Notes under the pieces: model-generated
Database searches by the model: none
Seen by the model: the letters and a program-made list of their open reading frames with translations, nothing else
What the model was told of the DNA's origin: nothing
NCBI GenBank assembly: GCA_014905635.1
Contig: CM026547.1
Location: 3,100,001-3,164,000, forward strand
Direction of reading: 5' to 3'
Length of the DNA: 64,000 nt
From: Scenedesmus sp. PABB004
Lineage: Eukaryota
Made by a program: the position numbers and the translations under genes
Shown here: one piece after another, positions 18,578-24,413 of the stretch
Position numbering within the stretch: the stretch's first letter is position 1
Layout of the letters: each line of letters begins with the position of its first letter

Positions 18578-20825
18578 CTAGCTCGCCGGCGGCAGCAGGT
18601 GCTGGGCGAGGTCGAACACCTCGCCAACGTTGCCCGCCTCCTCGCGCAGCGCGGCGCGCGCCGCCGCGAGCTGGCGCAGCAGCACCTCCAGCGAGCTCTG
18701 CGCCTCGGCGGGCGCGCGGGGCGGGGCGGCCGCCGAGTGAGGCGCCGGCGGCGCGGCGGTGGCACCGGCCGCTGCGCGCGGCGCCGCGCGGCGCGGCGCG
18801 CGCACCTGCGGCGGGCCGCCGCCGCCCCCGCCCGCGCCGTCGCCGTCGCCGCCAGCCGCGCCCGCTCCGGCCGCCGCGTCGGCGCCACCGCCGCTGGCGC
18901 GCGAGGCCGCGAGGATGGCGCCGTTGACCACGTCGGCCACGTGCTCGCGCTGGCCGAGGTGCAGCAGGTGCGCGAGCGGCGAGGCCTCGGGGCGCTCGTA
19001 CGCAATGAGCGCGACCACCTCGCGCAGCGCCGCGTCGCGCTGGCCCCCGCCCGGCTGCAGCCCCGCCAGCACCGTCTGCGCAAACTGCAGCGCCTCGCCG
19101 ACGCACGACTGCCTGCGCGGCGGGGCGCGCGGGCTGCGTGTCGCGGCGGCGGGGCGCGCGGCCGGGCGGCGGGGCGCGCGGCCGGGCGGCGCGCCGCGCC
19201 CCCGTGCTGCCGCGCTGCCGTCCGGGTCGTCTCACCGGATGAGCTCGATGAACTGCTGGCAGCTGAGGCAGAACTGGACCTCCTCGCTCACGGCGTGGCC
19301 CTGCAGCACCGCGGGGCACTGCGCCTGCAGCAGCTCCATCGCCGCCACCAGCTGCCCCGCCATGATCGCGCCGCGCACGGCTGCGCGCGTCGCGAGCGTG
19401 GCCGCCATGGCCTCCTCCTCGCCCTCGCTGCGCGGCGCGCGGCGCGCGGCGCGCGGCGGCGGCGTGTGAGCGCGGCGGCGGCGGGCGAGCGCGTGCGGGC
19501 GCGGGCGCGCGCGGGCGGGCGCGGGCGCGCGGGGGCCGCCGCACCACATGGGCTGCTCGATGCCCTCCGCGCCCGCCGCGCCGTCAAACGCCGCGAGCGT
19601 CGCGCCGTAGCCATAGTGCAGCAGGTAGCGCCGCACCACGCTGTGCGCCGTCCCGGCCGACACGTCCACGCTACGCGCGGCGCCGCGCGGGGTGGCCGCG
19701 TCGGCGCGCGGCGCGGGCGGCGCGGGCGGCGCGGGCGGCGCCGCTCCCGCCGGTGCCGCCGCTGCGCCGGCGCCCCCACGCGGGCGCACCGCTGCACGTC
19801 GGCGGCCTCCTGCTCCTGCTCCTCGATGAGCAGCGCCTCGAGGTCAAACTTGAACGGCGACGCGCCAAAGTTGACCGTCACCGCCTCGTTCTTGCTGCGC
19901 GGCGCGCACGGCGCGTGGGCACGGCGGGTCGGGCGGGCGGGGCGGGTCGGGCGCACGACGCAGGGCGGGAGAGGCGGGGCGGGGCGCGGCAGCGCTGGCT
20001 GCGCCGCCGCGCCTGTGCAGGCCGACGGTGGGGAACAGCTGCGTCGCCTGCACGTTGCGGAACGCCGTCTTGAGGCGTTGTCCGTTCTTGCTGCGCGCGC
20101 GGGGGCGGCGCAGCGGGGGGCGTCGGCGTCGGCGGCGGCGGCGGTGGCGCGGCGCGGCCGCGGGCGCCGCCGGCCGCCACCCCACGCGCCCGGGCGCCCG
20201 TGCTCACGTGAAGAAGACCTCCTGGCGGCCGAGGTGCAGGCACGCGCCGACGGTGTCGCCCGCGCCAAAGCGCGGCCCGTAGTCCTCGCCCTTGCCCGAC
20301 GCAGCGTACTTCTGGCCGTCGTCGCCGTGGTAGCCGTAGCTGCCCACCTCCCACCTGCCGCGGCACGGGACGGCGCGGCGCGCGCTCGGCCGGCCGGCCG
20401 GCGGGCAGCGCGCGCCAGGCCGCGCCGCCGCCGCCCGCGCAGCCGCGCGCCGCGCACCCGGGCTGGCGCGTGAGCTTGAAGGTGCGGTCGCTGAAGCCGA
20501 CGCCGACGCGGCCGTGCTCGCCCGCGTCGGTCACGGTGACCTCAAAGTAGTAGAGGCGCTGCGCGGCCGGCGCGGGCGCGTTGGCCTGCGCGGCGCCGAC
20601 GTCGTTCGCGTGCCGCCCCTCGCCCACGTAGCGCAGGCTGAGCTTGTCCTTGCCGACCTCCAGCCCGGGGCCGTGGTTGCTGGTGTTGAGCGCGCTCGGC
20701 GGCGGCTCCGGCGCGAGCGGCGCGCCCGCGGCAGCGGCGGCGCCGGGCGCGACCGGCGCCGCGCCGCCGCCCGGCGCCGTGCCGCCGCGGCCCCCGGCCA
20801 GGCCGCCCGTTGACCGGCGCGCCAG
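18578..20825 (-). CDS. RanBPM: RanBPM/RanBP9-10 (Gid1) homologue: SPRY-LisH-CTLH-CRA, CTLH E3 complex scaffold
   Basis: SPRY motifs YYFEVTV, GYHGDDG, FFTKNG, LFPTVGL, VNFGASPFKFD; LisH VVRRYLLHYGY; CTLH FCLSCQQFIELIR; CRA ALIAYERPEASP...QREHVADVVNGAIL. No in-frame ATG, so the start is placed at the CTG at 20825 (inference). Confidence 0.9.
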
Positions 20826-21055
20826 CGTGCCCACGCCGCCCCGGGCGGCTGCTGAAGGGCTGCGCGCGCTAGAGGAGCGGCGGGCGCGCAGCAGCAGCGG
20901 CGGCGGCGCGTTCGCGGCGCCGGGGGCCGGCTGCGTGGGTGAGCGGCGTGCGAGCGGCGTCCGGCGCTCGCGTGTCGTCGTCGATTCAGAGTACCGCCCC
21001 CCGGGCGGGCGAGCACGCGCGTCGGGGCTGCTCGGCGGTTCAGGGCGGCACGCCG

Positions 21056-21107
21056 CGACCGTCTGCACAATCCGGTGCGCGCTTGGGCACCAGATCGTGC
21101 ACGGTCG
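21056..21107. repeat. Imperfect ~21-bp-arm inverted repeat (hairpin)
   Basis: cgaccgt(ct)gcacaatccggtgc - gcgcttgg - gcaccagatcgtgcacggtcg; one 2-nt bulge and 2 mismatches. Confidence 0.7.
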
Positions 21108-21400
21108 GAGGCACGCAGCGGTCACCCACGCCCGGCGAGAGCCTCCCGCGATGCACAGCCGGTCGATCGGGCGACTGGGGCGCGCGCGCTGCCGGCAGCC
21201 CAAGCCGGCGCGCGCCGCGATGGGCAGCCTGTGAGGCGCGTGTGTGGTGCGTGCGTCGCGGCCGCCCGGATCGCGCACTCCGCGACGGGCGCGTTCCGGA
21301 AGATTTCATGCTGCCCCGCCCCGCGCCGCCCCGCCCCGCAACGCCCCGCCCCGCCCCGCCGTCAGGCGCCACGGCCTGAGCTGAGGGCGTGCTGGGCGCC

Positions 21401-22293
21401 ATGGAGCCGGAGCCGCCGCCACCGCCGCCGCCGATCGGCGGCGGGCAGCAGGAGGCGCAGCAGCGCGCTGGCGCGCCGGCTCAGGCCGATCCCGCGCACC
21501 CCGTGGCGCCCGCCGGCCTTTTCGCGCTGCCGGTGCTGAACTGGGGCGCGCACCGCGACGCGCGCGGGATTGAGCGGCACCGGCTTTGGCAGGAGGGGCG
21601 GCCGGGGCGGTACGACCGCCGCCCGCCCGGCGGCGGCGACTGCGTGCATGCCTGCCTGAACCGCGTGCCTGCATACTCGGGCACGAGCGTCGCCGCGCCG
21701 CCGCGTGGCGCAACGGCCGGGTGCATCATGTGCTCAACAATGCATTCGCATATAGCTTGCTTGCGTGCCGTGCAGAGTGTGCGTGGCGGCTGCGGAAGCA
21801 CGGGCTGAAGCAGCGCGCGCTGCATGCCGTGATTCAGTTGACTGCATACGGCCGGGTCTTTGTGCGCGGGCGCGTCCGGCCGCACGCGCGCCTGCCCGCC
21901 GACCTGCCCGCGGTGGTGCTGGGCATCGGGGACGCCAGCCTGGGCATGGGGGGCTGCATCTCGGGGCCGGGGCCGCCGCGGCAGGCGCTGCTGGCGCTGC
22001 TGCGCACGTACTACGCGCGCCGGCGCGTCGCCGCGGTGCTCATGGACGAGCACCGGACCAGCATCACCTGCTCTGTTTGCGGGGCGCGCATGGAGAAGCT
22101 GCGGGGCATTTACGGTTTGCTGCAGTGCCCCGGGTGCACGGTCGTCGCGCCGCGCGACGACAACGCGGCGCGCAACATCTGCGCGCTCACGCTGCACGAG
22201 TTGCTGCGCGGCGGCCGCGGCACGGCGGGCGGCGCGCGCCTCGCCGGCGCGTTCCGGCAGGCGGCCGCCGCCGCGGTGGACCCCCCGGCGTGA
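21401..22293 (+). mobile_element. Fanzor/TnpB-like RuvC + zinc-finger nuclease gene, short (~295 aa), one frameshift at ~21695-21705
   Basis: Frame 2: WRLRKHGLKQRAL, VLGIGDASLG, GPPRQALL, LMDEHRTSITCSVCG (RuvC-II E, CxxC), LQCPGC (CxxC), PRDDNAARNI (RuvC-III D). Frame 1 starts at ATG 21401 in gccATGg context. Intronless, unlike its neighbours. Confidence 0.85.
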
Positions 22294-22530
22294 GCGGCGT
22301 GTGCGGTGCGCTGCGCTCTCCGTCCTGGGCAGGACGTTAAAAGGCCTCTTGCTGTTGTGTGTTGCCAGGTTAGGTCAGCGGGTGCGCGTGTGCTTCTCGC
22401 ATTGTCACCCGTGGGGGGGACCCCCTCGCGGGGGCACCGACCTGCAGGCCGGTCCCAAACCGTTATGCCTCGCGCCGCAGTGGCCTGTTTCAGGCGGCCG
22501 GCGATCAGAGGATGCCCATGGTCGGTGTTG
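22294..22530 (+). ncRNA. Candidate Fanzor omega-RNA scaffold / element right end
   Basis: Lower-GC segment directly after the nuclease stop. Hairpins: cgtcct/aggacg (22321-22336), cgggtg/cacccg (22379-22411), gggacc/ggtccc (22417-22456), cctc-cgccg-gcctg/caggc-cggcg-gagg (~22468-22511). Long-range pairing caccgacc (22435-22442)/ggtcggtg (22520-22527). Confidence 0.5.
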
Positions 22531-22854
22531 GCGGCGGCGGCGCGCGCGCGCGCCGGTGGCAGCGCCGCGCACGCGCGCCCGCGGCGTCGGGGCGCCCCCC
22601 GGGGCGCCCCGGCAGCCCCCATCCCCCCAGCCGCCGGTGTTGAGACCACCGGCCGGCGCTCCCACGGCGGTAGCGAGGCCGGGGAGCACGCCCACCCGGC
22701 GAGACAGCACCTCGCAACACCCCAGACCGCGCCCGCCTGCGCCCGCCGCGCACGAGCCCGCCAGTACACTCCCACCCGCACCACCTCCGTCGCCGCTGCC
22801 GCCCTGCGCCGCGCCCCCGCCCGCCCCCGCGCCCGCCCCCGGCCACCAGGCACG

Positions 22855-23783
22855 ATGAGCTTCATGCGCGGCACCGGTGAGCGCGCGCGCACGCTCGTAG
22901 GGTCGCCGGGGGCCCAGCGCCGCGGCGCGGGGGCGTTGGGGTCGTTGGCCGCAGCGCGCGCGCGCGCTGCGGCGCCTGGCCGGCCGTGCAGGCCCGCAGC
23001 GGCCCCCACGCCGCGCGCCAGCGGTCGTGCGTCGCGCTTAGCACGCCCCCGGCACCGCGCCGGCGCCGGGCGAGGCGCCAGGGCGCCGCGCAGCGCGTTG
23101 CTGGCGCCCGCACGCCTCTTGACCCGGGCGCGCGGGCACCAACGGCCGGCCCAATTCGGCGCGGCGTGCCGCCCAATAGCGCAGCTGGCGGCCGGCGGGC
23201 CGCGGCCGCGCTGGCGCGACCGGCGCGCGGCAGCGGCGGCAGCGGCGGCAGCGGCGCGCGGCTGTTGGCGGCGGCGGCGGCCGGCGCCCGTCGCTGGCGG
23301 CGCGCGGCGCGGCAGGGCCCCCCTGGCGCGCCCGCGCCTCCCGCACGCCTCCCGCGACGCCCCTGCGCCTCGCGCGCGCCGCCCACGTGCGCCGCCGCCG
23401 CGCGCCGCGCGCCGCGCAGCGAGCCACCCGTGGCACGACCTCTCGCCCGGCAGCGACGCGCCGGCCGTGCTGAACGCGGTCATCGAGATCCCGCGCGGCT
23501 CCAAGGTCAAGTACGAGCTCGATAAGGACACGGGCCTGCTGTACGTCGACCGCATCCTCTACTCCAGCGTCGTGTACCCCCACAACTACGGCTTCATCCC
23601 CAAGACCCTCTGCGAGGACGCCGACCCGCTCGACGTGCTCGTGCTCATGCAGGCACGCGCGCGGGCGCGCGGCGGGCGGGGGCGCGCGCGGGGCGCGCAC
23701 GCGGGCGCGTCGGGAGCGCGCGCGCAGGAGGGGGCCCCAGCGCGAGCGGCCGCAGCGCGCGCGCGCCGACCTCGGCCCGCGCC

Positions 23784-23814
<31 letters not shown>

Positions 23815-24413
23815 GCGCAGGAGCCGGTCGTGCCGATGTGCTTCCTGCGCGTGCGCCCGATCGGCGTGATGCAGATGCTGGACCAGGGCGAGCAGGACGA
23901 CAAGGTCATCGCGGTGCACGCGGACGACCCCGAGTACAAGGGCTTCACCGACATCGCCCAGCTCCCGCCGCACCGGCTCGCTGAGATCAAGCGCTTCTTC
24001 GAGGACTACAAGAAGAACGAGCACAAGGAGGTCGTCGTCGACGACATCCAGGGCGCGGAGGAGGCGATGCGCATCGTCAAGGAGGGACTGGTGCGCGGCG
24101 CGGCGGCGGCGGCGCGGCGGGGGCGGCGCGCGCGCGGCGCGGGGAGGCAGCGGCGTGGCGCGCGGCGCAGGGAGGCAGCGGCGCGGCGTGGGGGGCGGCG
24201 GCCGAGGCGCGCGCCCCGCCCCCCCCCCCCCCCCCCCCCCCCCGCGCGCGCGCGTCGTGCTGCAGAACATGTACCAGGAGCACTACGTGCCCAAGAAGCT
24301 GGTGCGGCGCGCCGCGCGGCGGGGGCCGCCTGCCAGCCGCCGCAGCCAGCGGCCACGCGCCGACCCGCGCCCGCTGCTGCCGCCGACCCGCGCAGCGTGT
24401 GCACTACGACTGA
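22855..24413 (+). CDS. Soluble inorganic pyrophosphatase (family I)
   Basis: [71 protein letters not shown]; 5 exons ending KL|RVHYD*. Confidence 0.96.

Follow-up and report, generated by a model that had tools for sequence, protein, structure and literature searches.

Organization of the locus

Does the short Fanzor1-like reading frame described here encode an unusually small nuclease, or is it what is left of a larger one? Fanzor1 proteins are eukaryotic homologues of TnpB, that is, RNA-guided RuvC nucleases found on transposons and giant-virus elements. The open reading frame (ORF; 21586–22293, plus strand, 235 aa) represents the C half of a Fanzor1-like gene and lies in a 64-kb stretch of DNA, hereafter the window. 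Our analysis favors, with a probability of roughly 0.7, a recently inactivated, 5′-truncated relic of a green-algal Fanzor1 gene, i.e. an ordinary young transposon remnant.

The remnant occupies the ∼2-kb gap between two host genes of a Scenedesmus-like alga, which are those named in the first-pass annotation. On one side lie the minus-strand exons of a SPRY-CTLH (RanBPM-like) gene (19232–20690; Pfam SPRY, E = 3.3e-7; CTLH, E = 1.5e-4), and on the other several plus-strand exons of a soluble, ppa2-like inorganic pyrophosphatase (22856–24301; Pfam PF00719, E = 1.4e-54), which match ppa2 of Scenedesmus sp. PABB004. The ∼500 nt 5′ of the ATG at 21401 reach the 5′ end of the minus-strand host gene.

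Two overlapping frames contribute to the remnant. Frame 2 runs without a stop from ATG 21401 as far as 21808, and the open stretch of frame 1 begins at 21574. The N part (21401–21694, plus strand, frame 2) comprises 98 aa counted from the first ATG and the C part (21697–22293, plus strand, frame 1) 198 aa plus stop. Read through with an X at the break, they give 98 + 1 + 198 = 297 aa, without introns across ∼890 nt. The N part starts with Pro/Ala/Gly low-complexity sequence, after which it becomes family-like. The C part is organized into a helical linker, RuvC-II, the zinc ribbon (TNB), RuvC-III, and C-terminal helices.

Conserved motifs and catalytic residues

All motifs from WRLRKHGLKQRAL through PRDDNAARNI were recovered at the codons assigned to them in the first-pass annotation. 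Alignment and family profile identify WRLRKHGLKQRAL (21784–21822, plus strand) as the conserved RRWRLRK helix motif of the family. Likewise, the GAHRDARGIERHRLWQEG motif (21545–21598, plus strand) is conserved after RuvC-I in the full-length relatives.

In Fanzors, the canonical RuvC-II glutamate is replaced by glycine or proline, and an alternative glutamate is located ∼45 residues further downstream (PMC10530073). The remnant shows this relocation. The first glycine (G76, 21922–21924) of the GIGDAS strand (21922–21939, plus strand) takes the canonical RuvC-II Glu position, and the alternative catalytic glutamate of DEHRTS (E118, 22048–22050, plus strand) follows 42 residues later, directly before the zinc ribbon, as expected of the Fanzor1 type that had been proposed. 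Both residues are invariant in an alignment of the closest relatives (A2, 8 rows), and E118 is found in at least 90% of the 44 rows of a second alignment (A1). The cysteines of the C4 zinc ribbon CSVC…CPGC (22069–22137, plus strand; C125, C128, C144, and C147) are nearly invariant and fall within the Pfam match, and the RuvC-III Arg-Asp pair of PRDDNAARNI (22153–22158, plus strand; R153 and D154) is again invariant in A2. Altogether, the remnant retains all 15 invariant columns of A2.

The superfamily motif is given in PMC3627910 as D-X(125,275)-[TS]-[TS]-X-X-[C4 zinc finger]-X(5,50)-RD. The stretch R-T-S-I-T-C-S-V-C … C-P-G-C at 22057–22137 conforms to the [TS][TS]-x-x plus C4 zinc finger pattern, and in CPGC-TVVAP-RD five residues separate C147 from Arg-153, within the 5–50 required. 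A candidate for the RuvC-I aspartate is that of “QADPA” (21488–21490, plus strand), 190 residues before the TS motif and inside D-X(125,275). The earlier suggestion that this “ADPA” may be a RuvC-I relic agrees with MAFFT, which places the aspartate under the DPG of six relatives, but has no statistical support; the HMM alignment stops short of the aspartate. The family motif reads (G/A)(V/I)DPG, whereas the remnant has an alanine in place of the glycine of DPG, and the segment after “ADPA” falls short of that in the relatives by 16 residues or more, as counted on the MAFFT alignment.

Family membership and predicted fold

The ORF at 21586–22293 matches Pfam PF07282 (Cas12f1-like TNB) with 40.8 bits against a cut-off of 26.3 (E = 2.5e-10), which bears out its assignment to TnpB/Fanzor. 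The NCBIfam TnpB and Cas12f2 models match partially, the TnpB ones far under their cut-offs, and the top PDB sequence match is the mimivirus Fanzor2 L79 (9b0l). An exhaustive HMMER search returned 43 relatives at E ≤ 1e-3, including longer ones that a word-indexed search did not find. Eleven of the 43 have at least 400 aa and 7 have 555–632 aa, and 32 are predicted proteins of <300 aa. Relative P0002 (627 aa), for example, is 41% identical to the remnant (E = 6.3e-14). PF07282 is matched by 12 of the 13 relatives scanned at E ≤ 0.01 and by 7 of these 13 above the cut-off. Judged by their motifs and best structural matches, the relatives are probably Fanzor1 rather than Fanzor2 proteins. The remnant belongs to this green-algal Fanzor1 family.

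More distant relatives were found by a viral scan with A2, which gave 17 giant-virus loci of 25–43% identity. A metagenome scan gave four weak loci (33–48% identity), none of them close or of help with element ends or empty sites. Metagenome locus L001 looks bacterial, with methyltransferase-like ORFs, and was matched through a short word of the “AAVLMDEH” type.

An AlphaFold2 model of the C part, limited to the residues of 21697–22290, has a pLDDT of 80.5. The top Foldseek rows for this model are Cas12f, Fanzor, and TnpB (probability 1.00, best E = 1.6e-3). In VIA-align, the predicted structure superposes with residues 689–844 of PpFz (Z = 8.2, rmsd 2.8, 127 aligned), residues 467–633 of SpuFz (Z = 7.6), residues 227–378 of ISDra2 TnpB (Z = 7.4), and AsCas12f (Z = 7.2); Z scores near 8 are middling, and they carry weight through their agreement with the sequence-based results. 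The best 50 VIA-align rows listed are all Cas12, TnpB, or Fanzor. In the structural comparison with SpuFz1 and ISDra2 TnpB that had been proposed for the locus, the modeled C part matches the C-terminal RuvC regions of both, and a RuvC/TNB fold is accordingly predicted for 21697–22290.

The WED/REC half is missing

In the full-length relatives of 555–632 aa, the WED/REC front half accounts for 165–290 aa, and the remnant stops before it, retaining about 45% of the protein, counted from its C terminus. We built a family profile of 505 positions from six full-length relatives. The frame-1 piece of the remnant matches profile positions 295–485 (E = 7e-37). Upstream, a frame-2 piece matches positions 240–266, collinear with the C part (E = 0.0013 among 48 pieces, 0.023 among 839). 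None of the 839 six-frame pieces of the entire window matches positions 1–239, the WED/REC half, and therefore the gene starts at about RuvC-I. Searches by tblastn with 11 relatives agree: only their residues from ∼146–546 onward align. The absence of a WED/REC N terminus, noted in the first-pass annotation, is thereby confirmed for the window. Having lost WED and REC, the product would be unable to hold a guide RNA–target duplex and therefore to act as an RNA-guided nuclease. The remnant lacks two features of a functional Fanzor/TnpB RNA-guided nuclease, the WED/REC domains and an uninterrupted frame.

The frameshift and a sister copy

The first-pass annotation had postulated that a single frameshift at ∼21695–21705 separates ATG 21401 from the ORF. 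Contigs from two DNA runs (X1 and X2), derived from a ∼97%-identical relative, locate the break at 21695–21696, where the window reads CC and this sister copy CCC. The extra C behind 21695 puts the frame of ATG 21401 and the ORF in register, giving ∼297 aa; it is carried at a depth of 13.3 of 20.1 in X1 and 10.5 of 10.5 in X2. Over the covered 21595–22187, the sister frame is intact, and X2 record 21 differs from the window by 14 substitutions and one insertion. The CC form was seen elsewhere in one short X1 contig only (depth 6.8 of 20.1). The CC/CCC site is a homopolymer, where the assembly of the window may be in error. An intron instead of a frameshift was considered for three GT…AG pairs picked by eye (21644–21775, 132 nt; 21665–21775, 111 nt; 21610–21775, 166 nt); none is in phase, and we dropped this reading because the relative shows a 1-nt indel.

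The X1/X2 contigs also have the flanks of the window, from 20976 to 22542, and the sister copy is an allele, a paralogue, or a copy from a close strain. Joints in the contig comparison all had short sides (20–26 nt) within low-complexity sequence, and we took them for spurious; no empty-site contig was recognized among the contigs compared with the window.

A 98%-identical stretch forms part of an annotated protein in Scenedesmus sp. PABB004. This second copy or allele is on a 1.30-Mb contig, where another gene follows it, whereas ppa2 is on a 4.85-Mb contig. The gene model begins at an internal methionine and continues into an unrelated OB-fold gene, and because of this we regard it as a prediction artefact rather than as support for a protein. 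The OB-fold part is absent from the window. An exon following “DPPA” in relative P0001 was sought downstream in the window, and the scores (33–43) stayed below the best chance scores elsewhere (46–54).

Surroundings of the remnant and its 3′ flank

We found no second copy of 20901–22700 in the 64 kb and no convincing element ends around the remnant in the window, where both neighbors are host genes. The search for terminal repeats gave 59 inverted pairs, GC-rich and 70–94% complementary, none of which sensibly brackets the ORF; they resemble chance pairs.

The 3′ end of the ORF and the lower-GC flank behind it (22254–22566) are covered by metatranscriptome contigs (X10 records 11–12 and X8 record 24) with 0 differences, the contigs being compatible with either strand. 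The X8 and X10 contigs do not cover 21003–22171, a gap that carries no information on expression. Folding of 22254–22566 was not better than that of shuffled sequences (z-scores of −1.3 on the plus and −1.1 on the minus strand). No Rfam family matches the 3′ flank; the only hit, mir-5856, scored 25 bits against the 90 needed, as expected by chance. Of all parts compared between the copies, the 3′ flank is the most poorly conserved (5 indels in ∼170 nt).

Coding constraint and origin of the locus

Compared with the sister copy, the ORF carries 14 substitutions in 594 nt (2.4%), and the flanks 7 in 330 nt upstream (2.1%) and 5 in ∼170 nt downstream (2.9%). The ORF has diverged in a neutral-like manner, at about the same rate as the non-coding flanks. 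The codon changes are 6 synonymous and 6 non-synonymous (pN/pS 0.39, p = 0.087, not significant). No indel occurs in 21697–22290, as opposed to 9 events in the ∼500 nt of flanks. GC content by codon position is 0.85/0.62/0.90 in the N part and 0.74/0.57/0.90 in the C part, and flat in the flanks. GC3 in the remnant is host-like (0.90–0.97). The codon-position GC is what coding constraint that acted until recently, or still acts, would leave behind; the retained invariant columns, the indel-free ORF, the pN/pS, and the frame-intact sister copy likewise count against a mere relic.

For a 5′-truncated relic, the front half would have been lost on insertion or later, in line with reports on Helitron2-borne Fanzor1 copies in Chlamydomonas, and a 1-nt deletion at 21695/21696 would have split the frame of the window copy. 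The host-like GC3 together with the retained catalytic and zinc residues suggests that truncation and inactivation were recent and is not proof of function. Of the options raised in the first-pass annotation, that of a decayed or truncated copy agrees best with the data. Its leaning toward a nuclease that is “unusually minimal” or domesticated is not supported, given that 165–290 front residues are gone, the frame is broken, and divergence equals that of the flanks; moreover, 5′-truncated Fanzor1 copies and Fanzor fragments have already been reported from green algae (PMC3627910; bioRxiv 10.1101/2024.09.03.611062).

We nevertheless weighed a host-retained or domesticated protein of ∼297–300 aa, consisting of the RuvC core and zinc ribbon without WED/REC, which could serve as a nuclease that needs no guide, as a DNA-binding factor, or as a protein that partners or inhibits full-length Fanzors; the frameshift in the window would then stem from misassembly or mark a null allele. 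We consider this unlikely. Host-like codon-position GC in both parts, the presence of the catalytic glutamate, the Arg-Asp pair, and all four zinc cysteines, the frame restored in the X1 and X2 contigs, and a compact fold predicted with confidence would suit such a protein, and its partial annotation in PABB004 would do so if the model were not an artefact. The pN/pS of 0.39 points the same way but rests on 12 changes and is not significant, the substitution rate is the same as in the flanks, and the 594 nt without indels may only reflect a contrast with GC-rich, low-complexity flanks. Furthermore, a divergence of ∼2.4% between the copies is too small to show long-term retention, and what may remain of RuvC-I is no better than a degenerate ADPA followed by a shortened hairpin. 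More doubtful still is a naturally miniaturized Fanzor derivative of ∼300 aa that consists solely of the split RuvC core with the zinc ribbon. Such a protein, with an unbroken frame in the sister copy, host codon usage, and its catalytic Glu and Asp and zinc ligands in place, would be kept by the host as a guide-independent nuclease, DNA-binding factor, or modulator of full-length Fanzors, the window copy being null or misassembled.

Slightly less probable again is a mobilizable non-autonomous element. The remnant together with its 3′ flank would then be the 3′-terminal piece of a Fanzor1 carrier, whether Helitron2-like or of another type, and a guide (fRNA/omega RNA) encoded in the flank would be usable in trans by full-length copies. 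The RNA contigs over 22254–22566, from two runs of one study, do overlap the 3′ end of the ORF at the relative place of the CrFNuc fRNA, the 3′ UTR (PMC10530073), but could equally represent the 5′ UTR of the pyrophosphatase gene, and the flank has neither a significant fold nor an Rfam family and is poorly conserved. PMC3627910 reports that Fanzor1 Helitron2 copies are retained with a 3′ bias, and the PABB004 copy lies beside another downstream gene on a contig other than that of ppa2. However, 20901–22700 has no other copy in the window, the inverted repeats are GC-rich and 70–82% complementary as chance gives here, and the flanks common to X1/X2 and the window fit an allele or segmental duplicate, not transposition. 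Least plausible of all is a full-length, intron-containing Fanzor1 gene with missed N-terminal exons. Although host genes here are intron-rich and Chlamydomonas CrFNuc has introns (PMC10530073), profile positions 1–239 find no match in any frame of the 64 kb, nor by tblastn; the ∼500 nt 5′ of ATG 21401 run into the minus-strand host gene, and the frames are joined in the relative by a 1-nt indel, not by an intron.

Comparison with known systems

Bacterial TldRs keep their RNA-binding domains and lose RuvC residues, the opposite of the remnant. As nuclease-dead, domesticated TnpBs, they are a precedent for a host-kept, non-transposon role (bioRxiv 10.1101/2023.11.30.569447).

Among green-algal Fanzor1 genes, CRe-1, 2, and 3 of Chlamydomonas reinhardtii, carried on Helitron2, are frequently 5′-truncated with the 3′ part kept, according to PMC3627910. 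CrFNuc is a Chlamydomonas Fanzor1c with introns, whose fRNA maps to the 3′ UTR (PMC10530073). The remnant resembles these, by description only, as a green-algal Fanzor1 with 5′ truncation. Where the non-coding RNA of CrFNuc maps to the 3′ UTR, the 3′ flank here is covered by RNA contigs compatible with either strand. Unlike for the CRe elements, no Helitron2 ends, target-site duplication, or further copies were found in the window. The preprint bioRxiv 10.1101/2024.09.03.611062 describes a Fanzor fragment on chromosome 17 of C. reinhardtii and fragmentary Fanzor arrangements in a giant endogenous virus. The remnant is likewise a fragmentary Fanzor1 in a host chromosome with giant-virus relatives; in contrast to the giant-endogenous-virus fragments as described there, it is flanked by two host genes and no viral ones. 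It adds a Scenedesmaceae example to the reported pattern of 5′-truncated green-algal Fanzor1 copies.

For annotation, the locus illustrates that, in algal DNA of extremely high GC content, a truncated relic can underlie a strong TnpB/Fanzor motif match, and that gene predictors fuse such relics with neighboring genes, as in PABB004 model HT031_003426. It also marks a family with full-length relatives of 555–632 aa, a possible source of active nucleases. If the short form were conserved and expressed, it would bear on the minimum size of a RuvC nuclease.

PpFz of Parasitella parasitica (9cf1) and SpuFz1 of Spizellomyces punctatus (8gkh, 9cez) have the same RuvC-II/zinc ribbon/RuvC-III fold that is predicted for the remnant, which aligns to their C-terminal 155–165 residues (Z = 8.2 and 7.6). 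They also share the relocated glutamate before the zinc ribbon and the RD…NAA..NI motif. Whereas these proteins comprise 600–850 aa with WED, REC, and a guide RNA, the remnant has ∼297 aa, no WED/REC, and a broken frame. The RuvC/TNB core is also common to ISDra2 TnpB (8h1j) and Cas12f, from which the remnant differs by the glycine at the canonical RuvC-II Glu position and by its eukaryotic, GC3-rich host codon usage.

Family assignment and predicted fold

The ORF (21586–22293, plus strand) lies between a SPRY-CTLH gene and an inorganic pyrophosphatase (PPase) gene, in eukaryotic DNA that has a G+C content of 78.8% across the window. The left, RanBPM-like neighbor on the minus strand has exons with SPRY (E 3.3e-7) and CTLH (E 1.5e-4) domains, and the right neighbor matches PF00719 (E 1.4e-54). 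In its best local segment, the match of the PPase exons to ppa2 of Scenedesmus sp. PABB004 reaches 100% identity; all three exon matches are at 96–100%, with the mismatches falling at match ends.

Translation of the ORF returned every motif that the first-pass annotation had read there, each at its predicted codon. The ORF scores 40.8 bits with the Pfam Cas12f1-like TNB model (cut-off 26.3); the NCBIfam TnpB and Cas12f2 models match over the last ∼50 positions only, with scores far under their cut-offs. Among PDB sequences, Fanzor2 L79 of mimivirus (9b0l, E 0.0013) matches best, ahead of LaTranC, Cas12m, and Cas12f. An exhaustive HMMER search yielded 43 relatives at E≤1e-3, two of them at E≤1e-10; 11 of the 43 have at least 400 residues, seven have 555–632, and 32 have fewer than 300. 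PF07282 was matched at E≤0.01 by 12 of the 13 relatives scanned, and above its cut-off by seven of the 13.

The order of motifs is fixed across full-length relatives: (G/A)(V/I)DPG (RuvC-I), h-R-D/T-A-x-G, an RRWRLRK-type helix, G-x-G-D/N-A-S, DE(W/H/Y)RTS-x-x-C-x-x-C, C...C, and DRD-x-NAA-x-NI. All 15 invariant columns of an eight-row alignment are retained in the window (numbered along the C-terminal part of the locus: Gly-58, Gly-76, Pro-94, Asp-117, Glu-118, Thr-121, Ser-122, Cys-125, Ser-126, Cys-128, Cys-144, Arg-153, Asp-154, Ala-157, and Asn-160). Gly-76 occupies the canonical RuvC-II position, and Glu-118 is located 42 residues downstream. The locus is thus a member of the TnpB/Fanzor family, and its proposed Fanzor1-type identity holds. 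Relatives matching residues 59–174 of the C-terminal part at 25–43% identity were also seen at 17 loci (L005–L021) on giant-virus metagenome contigs, several of them labelled GVMAG.

An AlphaFold2 model of 21697–22290 only, built with a 44-row alignment, is confident (pLDDT 80.5, pTM 0.71). The best Foldseek rows are Cas12f, Fanzor2, PpFz, and SpuFz at a probability of 1.00, with a best E of 1.6e-3 and no row at or under 1e-3. VIA-align placed the model on residues 689–844 of PpFz (Z 8.2, rmsd 2.8, 127 aligned), 467–633 of SpuFz (Z 7.6), and 227–378 of ISDra2 TnpB (Z 7.4), and its best 50 rows are all Cas12, TnpB, or Fanzor. Because Z values near 8 are middling, the predicted fold agrees with the sequence evidence and is not independent proof.

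Frameshift and second copy

Frame 2 is open from the ATG at 21401 to 21808, and frame 1 from 21574. Contigs of ∼97% identity from two freshwater-metagenome DNA runs, X1 and X2, carry an extra C behind 21695 (depth 13.3/20.1 in X1 and 10.5/10.5 in X2), which brings the two frames into register and bears out the frameshift predicted earlier. In a 603-nt contig of X2 (21595–22187), the extra C and 14 substitutions account for all differences. An 896-nt contig of X1, for which 19 of 21 substitutions are listed, has a further in-frame 9-nt insertion behind 21594, and none of its 23 gap letters (all listed) falls within 21697–22290.

A six-member full-length profile matches the frame-2 part at positions 240–266 (the "AHRDARG" motif), collinear with the frame-1 match at positions 295–485. 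The E of the frame-2 match is 0.0013 when 48 pieces are searched and 0.023 when the search takes in the entire window (839 pieces), in which it ranks second. GC by codon position, each part in its own frame, is 0.85/0.62/0.90 in the N-terminal part (21401–21694) and 0.74/0.57/0.90 in the C-terminal part (21697–22293); the PPase exons show 0.65/0.35/0.99 and the flanks no periodicity. The frame-2 part is family-like and no filler. The collinear matches and the coding-type periodicity in both parts indicate that the ∼295-residue reconstruction was correct, the frames being joined by a 1-nt indel (297 residues when read with X at the break).

A predicted protein, HT031_003426 of Scenedesmus sp. 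PABB004, is identical to 21946–22290 at 113 of 115 residues. Beyond the remnant, by way of a GTGAGC that shares bases with the stop codon, it runs on into an unrelated OB-fold protein (PF21473) not present in the window. The contig that bears it measures 1.30 Mb, and that of ppa2 4.85 Mb. Its two changes, M to V and L to V, also occur in the X1 and X2 contigs, which have the window's own flanks over 20976–22542. X1 and X2 each contain both variants (depth 13.3/20.1 at 21701; 10.5/20.1 at 22090 in X2). This pattern implies two closely related copies; allelic or haplotig variants, a segmental duplicate, and the presence of two strains could each account for them. The HT031_003426 model takes an internal Met codon of the remnant (21946) as its start and is spliced from GTGAGC at 22290–22296 into the OB-fold gene; it is likely an annotation chimera, and a sign of a second copy or haplotype with another downstream neighbor.

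Absence of the N-terminal half

In the relatives, DPG is found 165–290 residues from the N terminus, after motifs such as FAGH-x-x-TDGV; the first ATG of the remnant is 29 residues ahead of its "ADPA". No frame of the 64 kb window matched profile positions 1–239, tblastn with 11 relatives aligned C-terminal parts alone, and the 500 nt upstream extend into the minus-strand host gene. MAFFT placed "ADPA" under the DPG of the relatives, with the TS motif 190 residues further on, inside the published D-X(125,275) spacing range (PMC3627910). Because the HMM alignment stops short of "ADPA", Ala replaces the Gly of DPG, and the hairpin after it falls short of that in the relatives by 16 residues or more (manual count), "ADPA" is no more than a candidate RuvC-I motif. 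Two short predicted relatives, P0003 (240 residues) and P0011 (274 residues), likewise start right after the RuvC-I region, from internal Met codons at the h-R-x-A-x-G...W motif, which suggests that many members of the family are 5′-truncated copies, or models cut at that position.

We consider the locus a recently inactivated, 5′-truncated Fanzor1 remnant, with a probability of about 0.7. The earlier proposal of a minimal or domesticated nuclease is unsupported, as WED/REC is absent and the frame is broken in the window; by analogy with the solved complexes of PpFz, SpuFz, and ISDra2 TnpB, a protein without WED/REC would be unable to bind a guide–target duplex as TnpB and Fanzor do. That a short protein has been retained is unlikely. 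Its GC3 is host-like, and the two copies differ by six synonymous and six non-synonymous codon changes (S = 165, N = 429 sites; pN/pS 0.39), a ratio that falls short of significance (p 0.087). The 594 nt of ORF contain no indels, against four indel events in 20976–21305 and five in 22294–22463, but these flanks are low-complexity GC repeats prone to unit gain and loss. Moreover, substitutions in the ORF (14/594, 2.4%) equal the flank rate (7/330 upstream, 5/∼170 downstream), and ∼2.4% divergence says nothing on long-term retention. Missed upstream exons are highly improbable, given the lack of any match to profile positions 1–239 across the window.

Earlier reports describe similar copies. The Chlamydomonas Fanzor1 families CRe-1, 2, and 3, carried by Helitron2 elements, are reported to be "frequently 5′-truncated" with intact 3′ parts (Bao and Jurka, PMC3627910), and a 2024 preprint reports Fanzor-only arrangements and element fragments, as well as a piece of a Fanzor on chromosome 17 of C. 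reinhardtii (10.1101/2024.09.03.611062). The remnant would be another case of this known pattern, a 5′-truncated green-algal Fanzor1 copy. Among the literature matches listed, a preprint on bacterial TldR is the sole domestication study.

3′ flank and local composition

RNA contigs from two metatranscriptome runs of one study cover 22254–22566 with no differences; a variant of this sequence agrees with the sister copy. This segment, directly after the ORF, is lower in GC (62–72%) and is the only part of 21000–22800 found at 100% identity in metatranscriptome contigs, in both allelic forms. The CrFNuc fRNA sits in a 3′ UTR (PMC10530073), a position similar to that of these contigs; by this analogy the segment might belong to the 3′ end of a non-autonomous element and encode a guide RNA. 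We regard this as quite improbable, since folding of 22254–22566 is unremarkable and the segment is the least conserved stretch between the two copies. With the PPase ATG at 22856, the RNA fits a long PPase 5′ UTR equally well; it could be that, the 3′ UTR of the remnant, or a separate RNA. At 22320–22345, ∼30 nt past the stop codon, CGTCCTG/CAGGACG forms a short, perfect palindrome with TTAAAAGG behind it; this could act as a terminator or in processing, or represent a 3′ hairpin of the Helitron type.

An Rfam match to mir-5856 at 21047–21117 (minus strand; 25 bits, gathering score 90, E 0.028) is almost certainly due to chance in GC-rich DNA. A CCCCGCC-type repeat run (21306–21365) directly precedes the ATG at 21401, in the promoter region shared by the divergent host genes; the read alignment skipped 21308–21444 as repeats. 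Throughout 20000–24000, for example at 23400–24100, introns and intergenic DNA are far more GC-rich than exons, the reverse of the usual pattern. The PPase exons have 58–66% GC (GC3 0.98–0.99, GC2 0.26–0.35), and the intron between them ∼93%, so that exons of this genome can in practice be located by their dips in GC.
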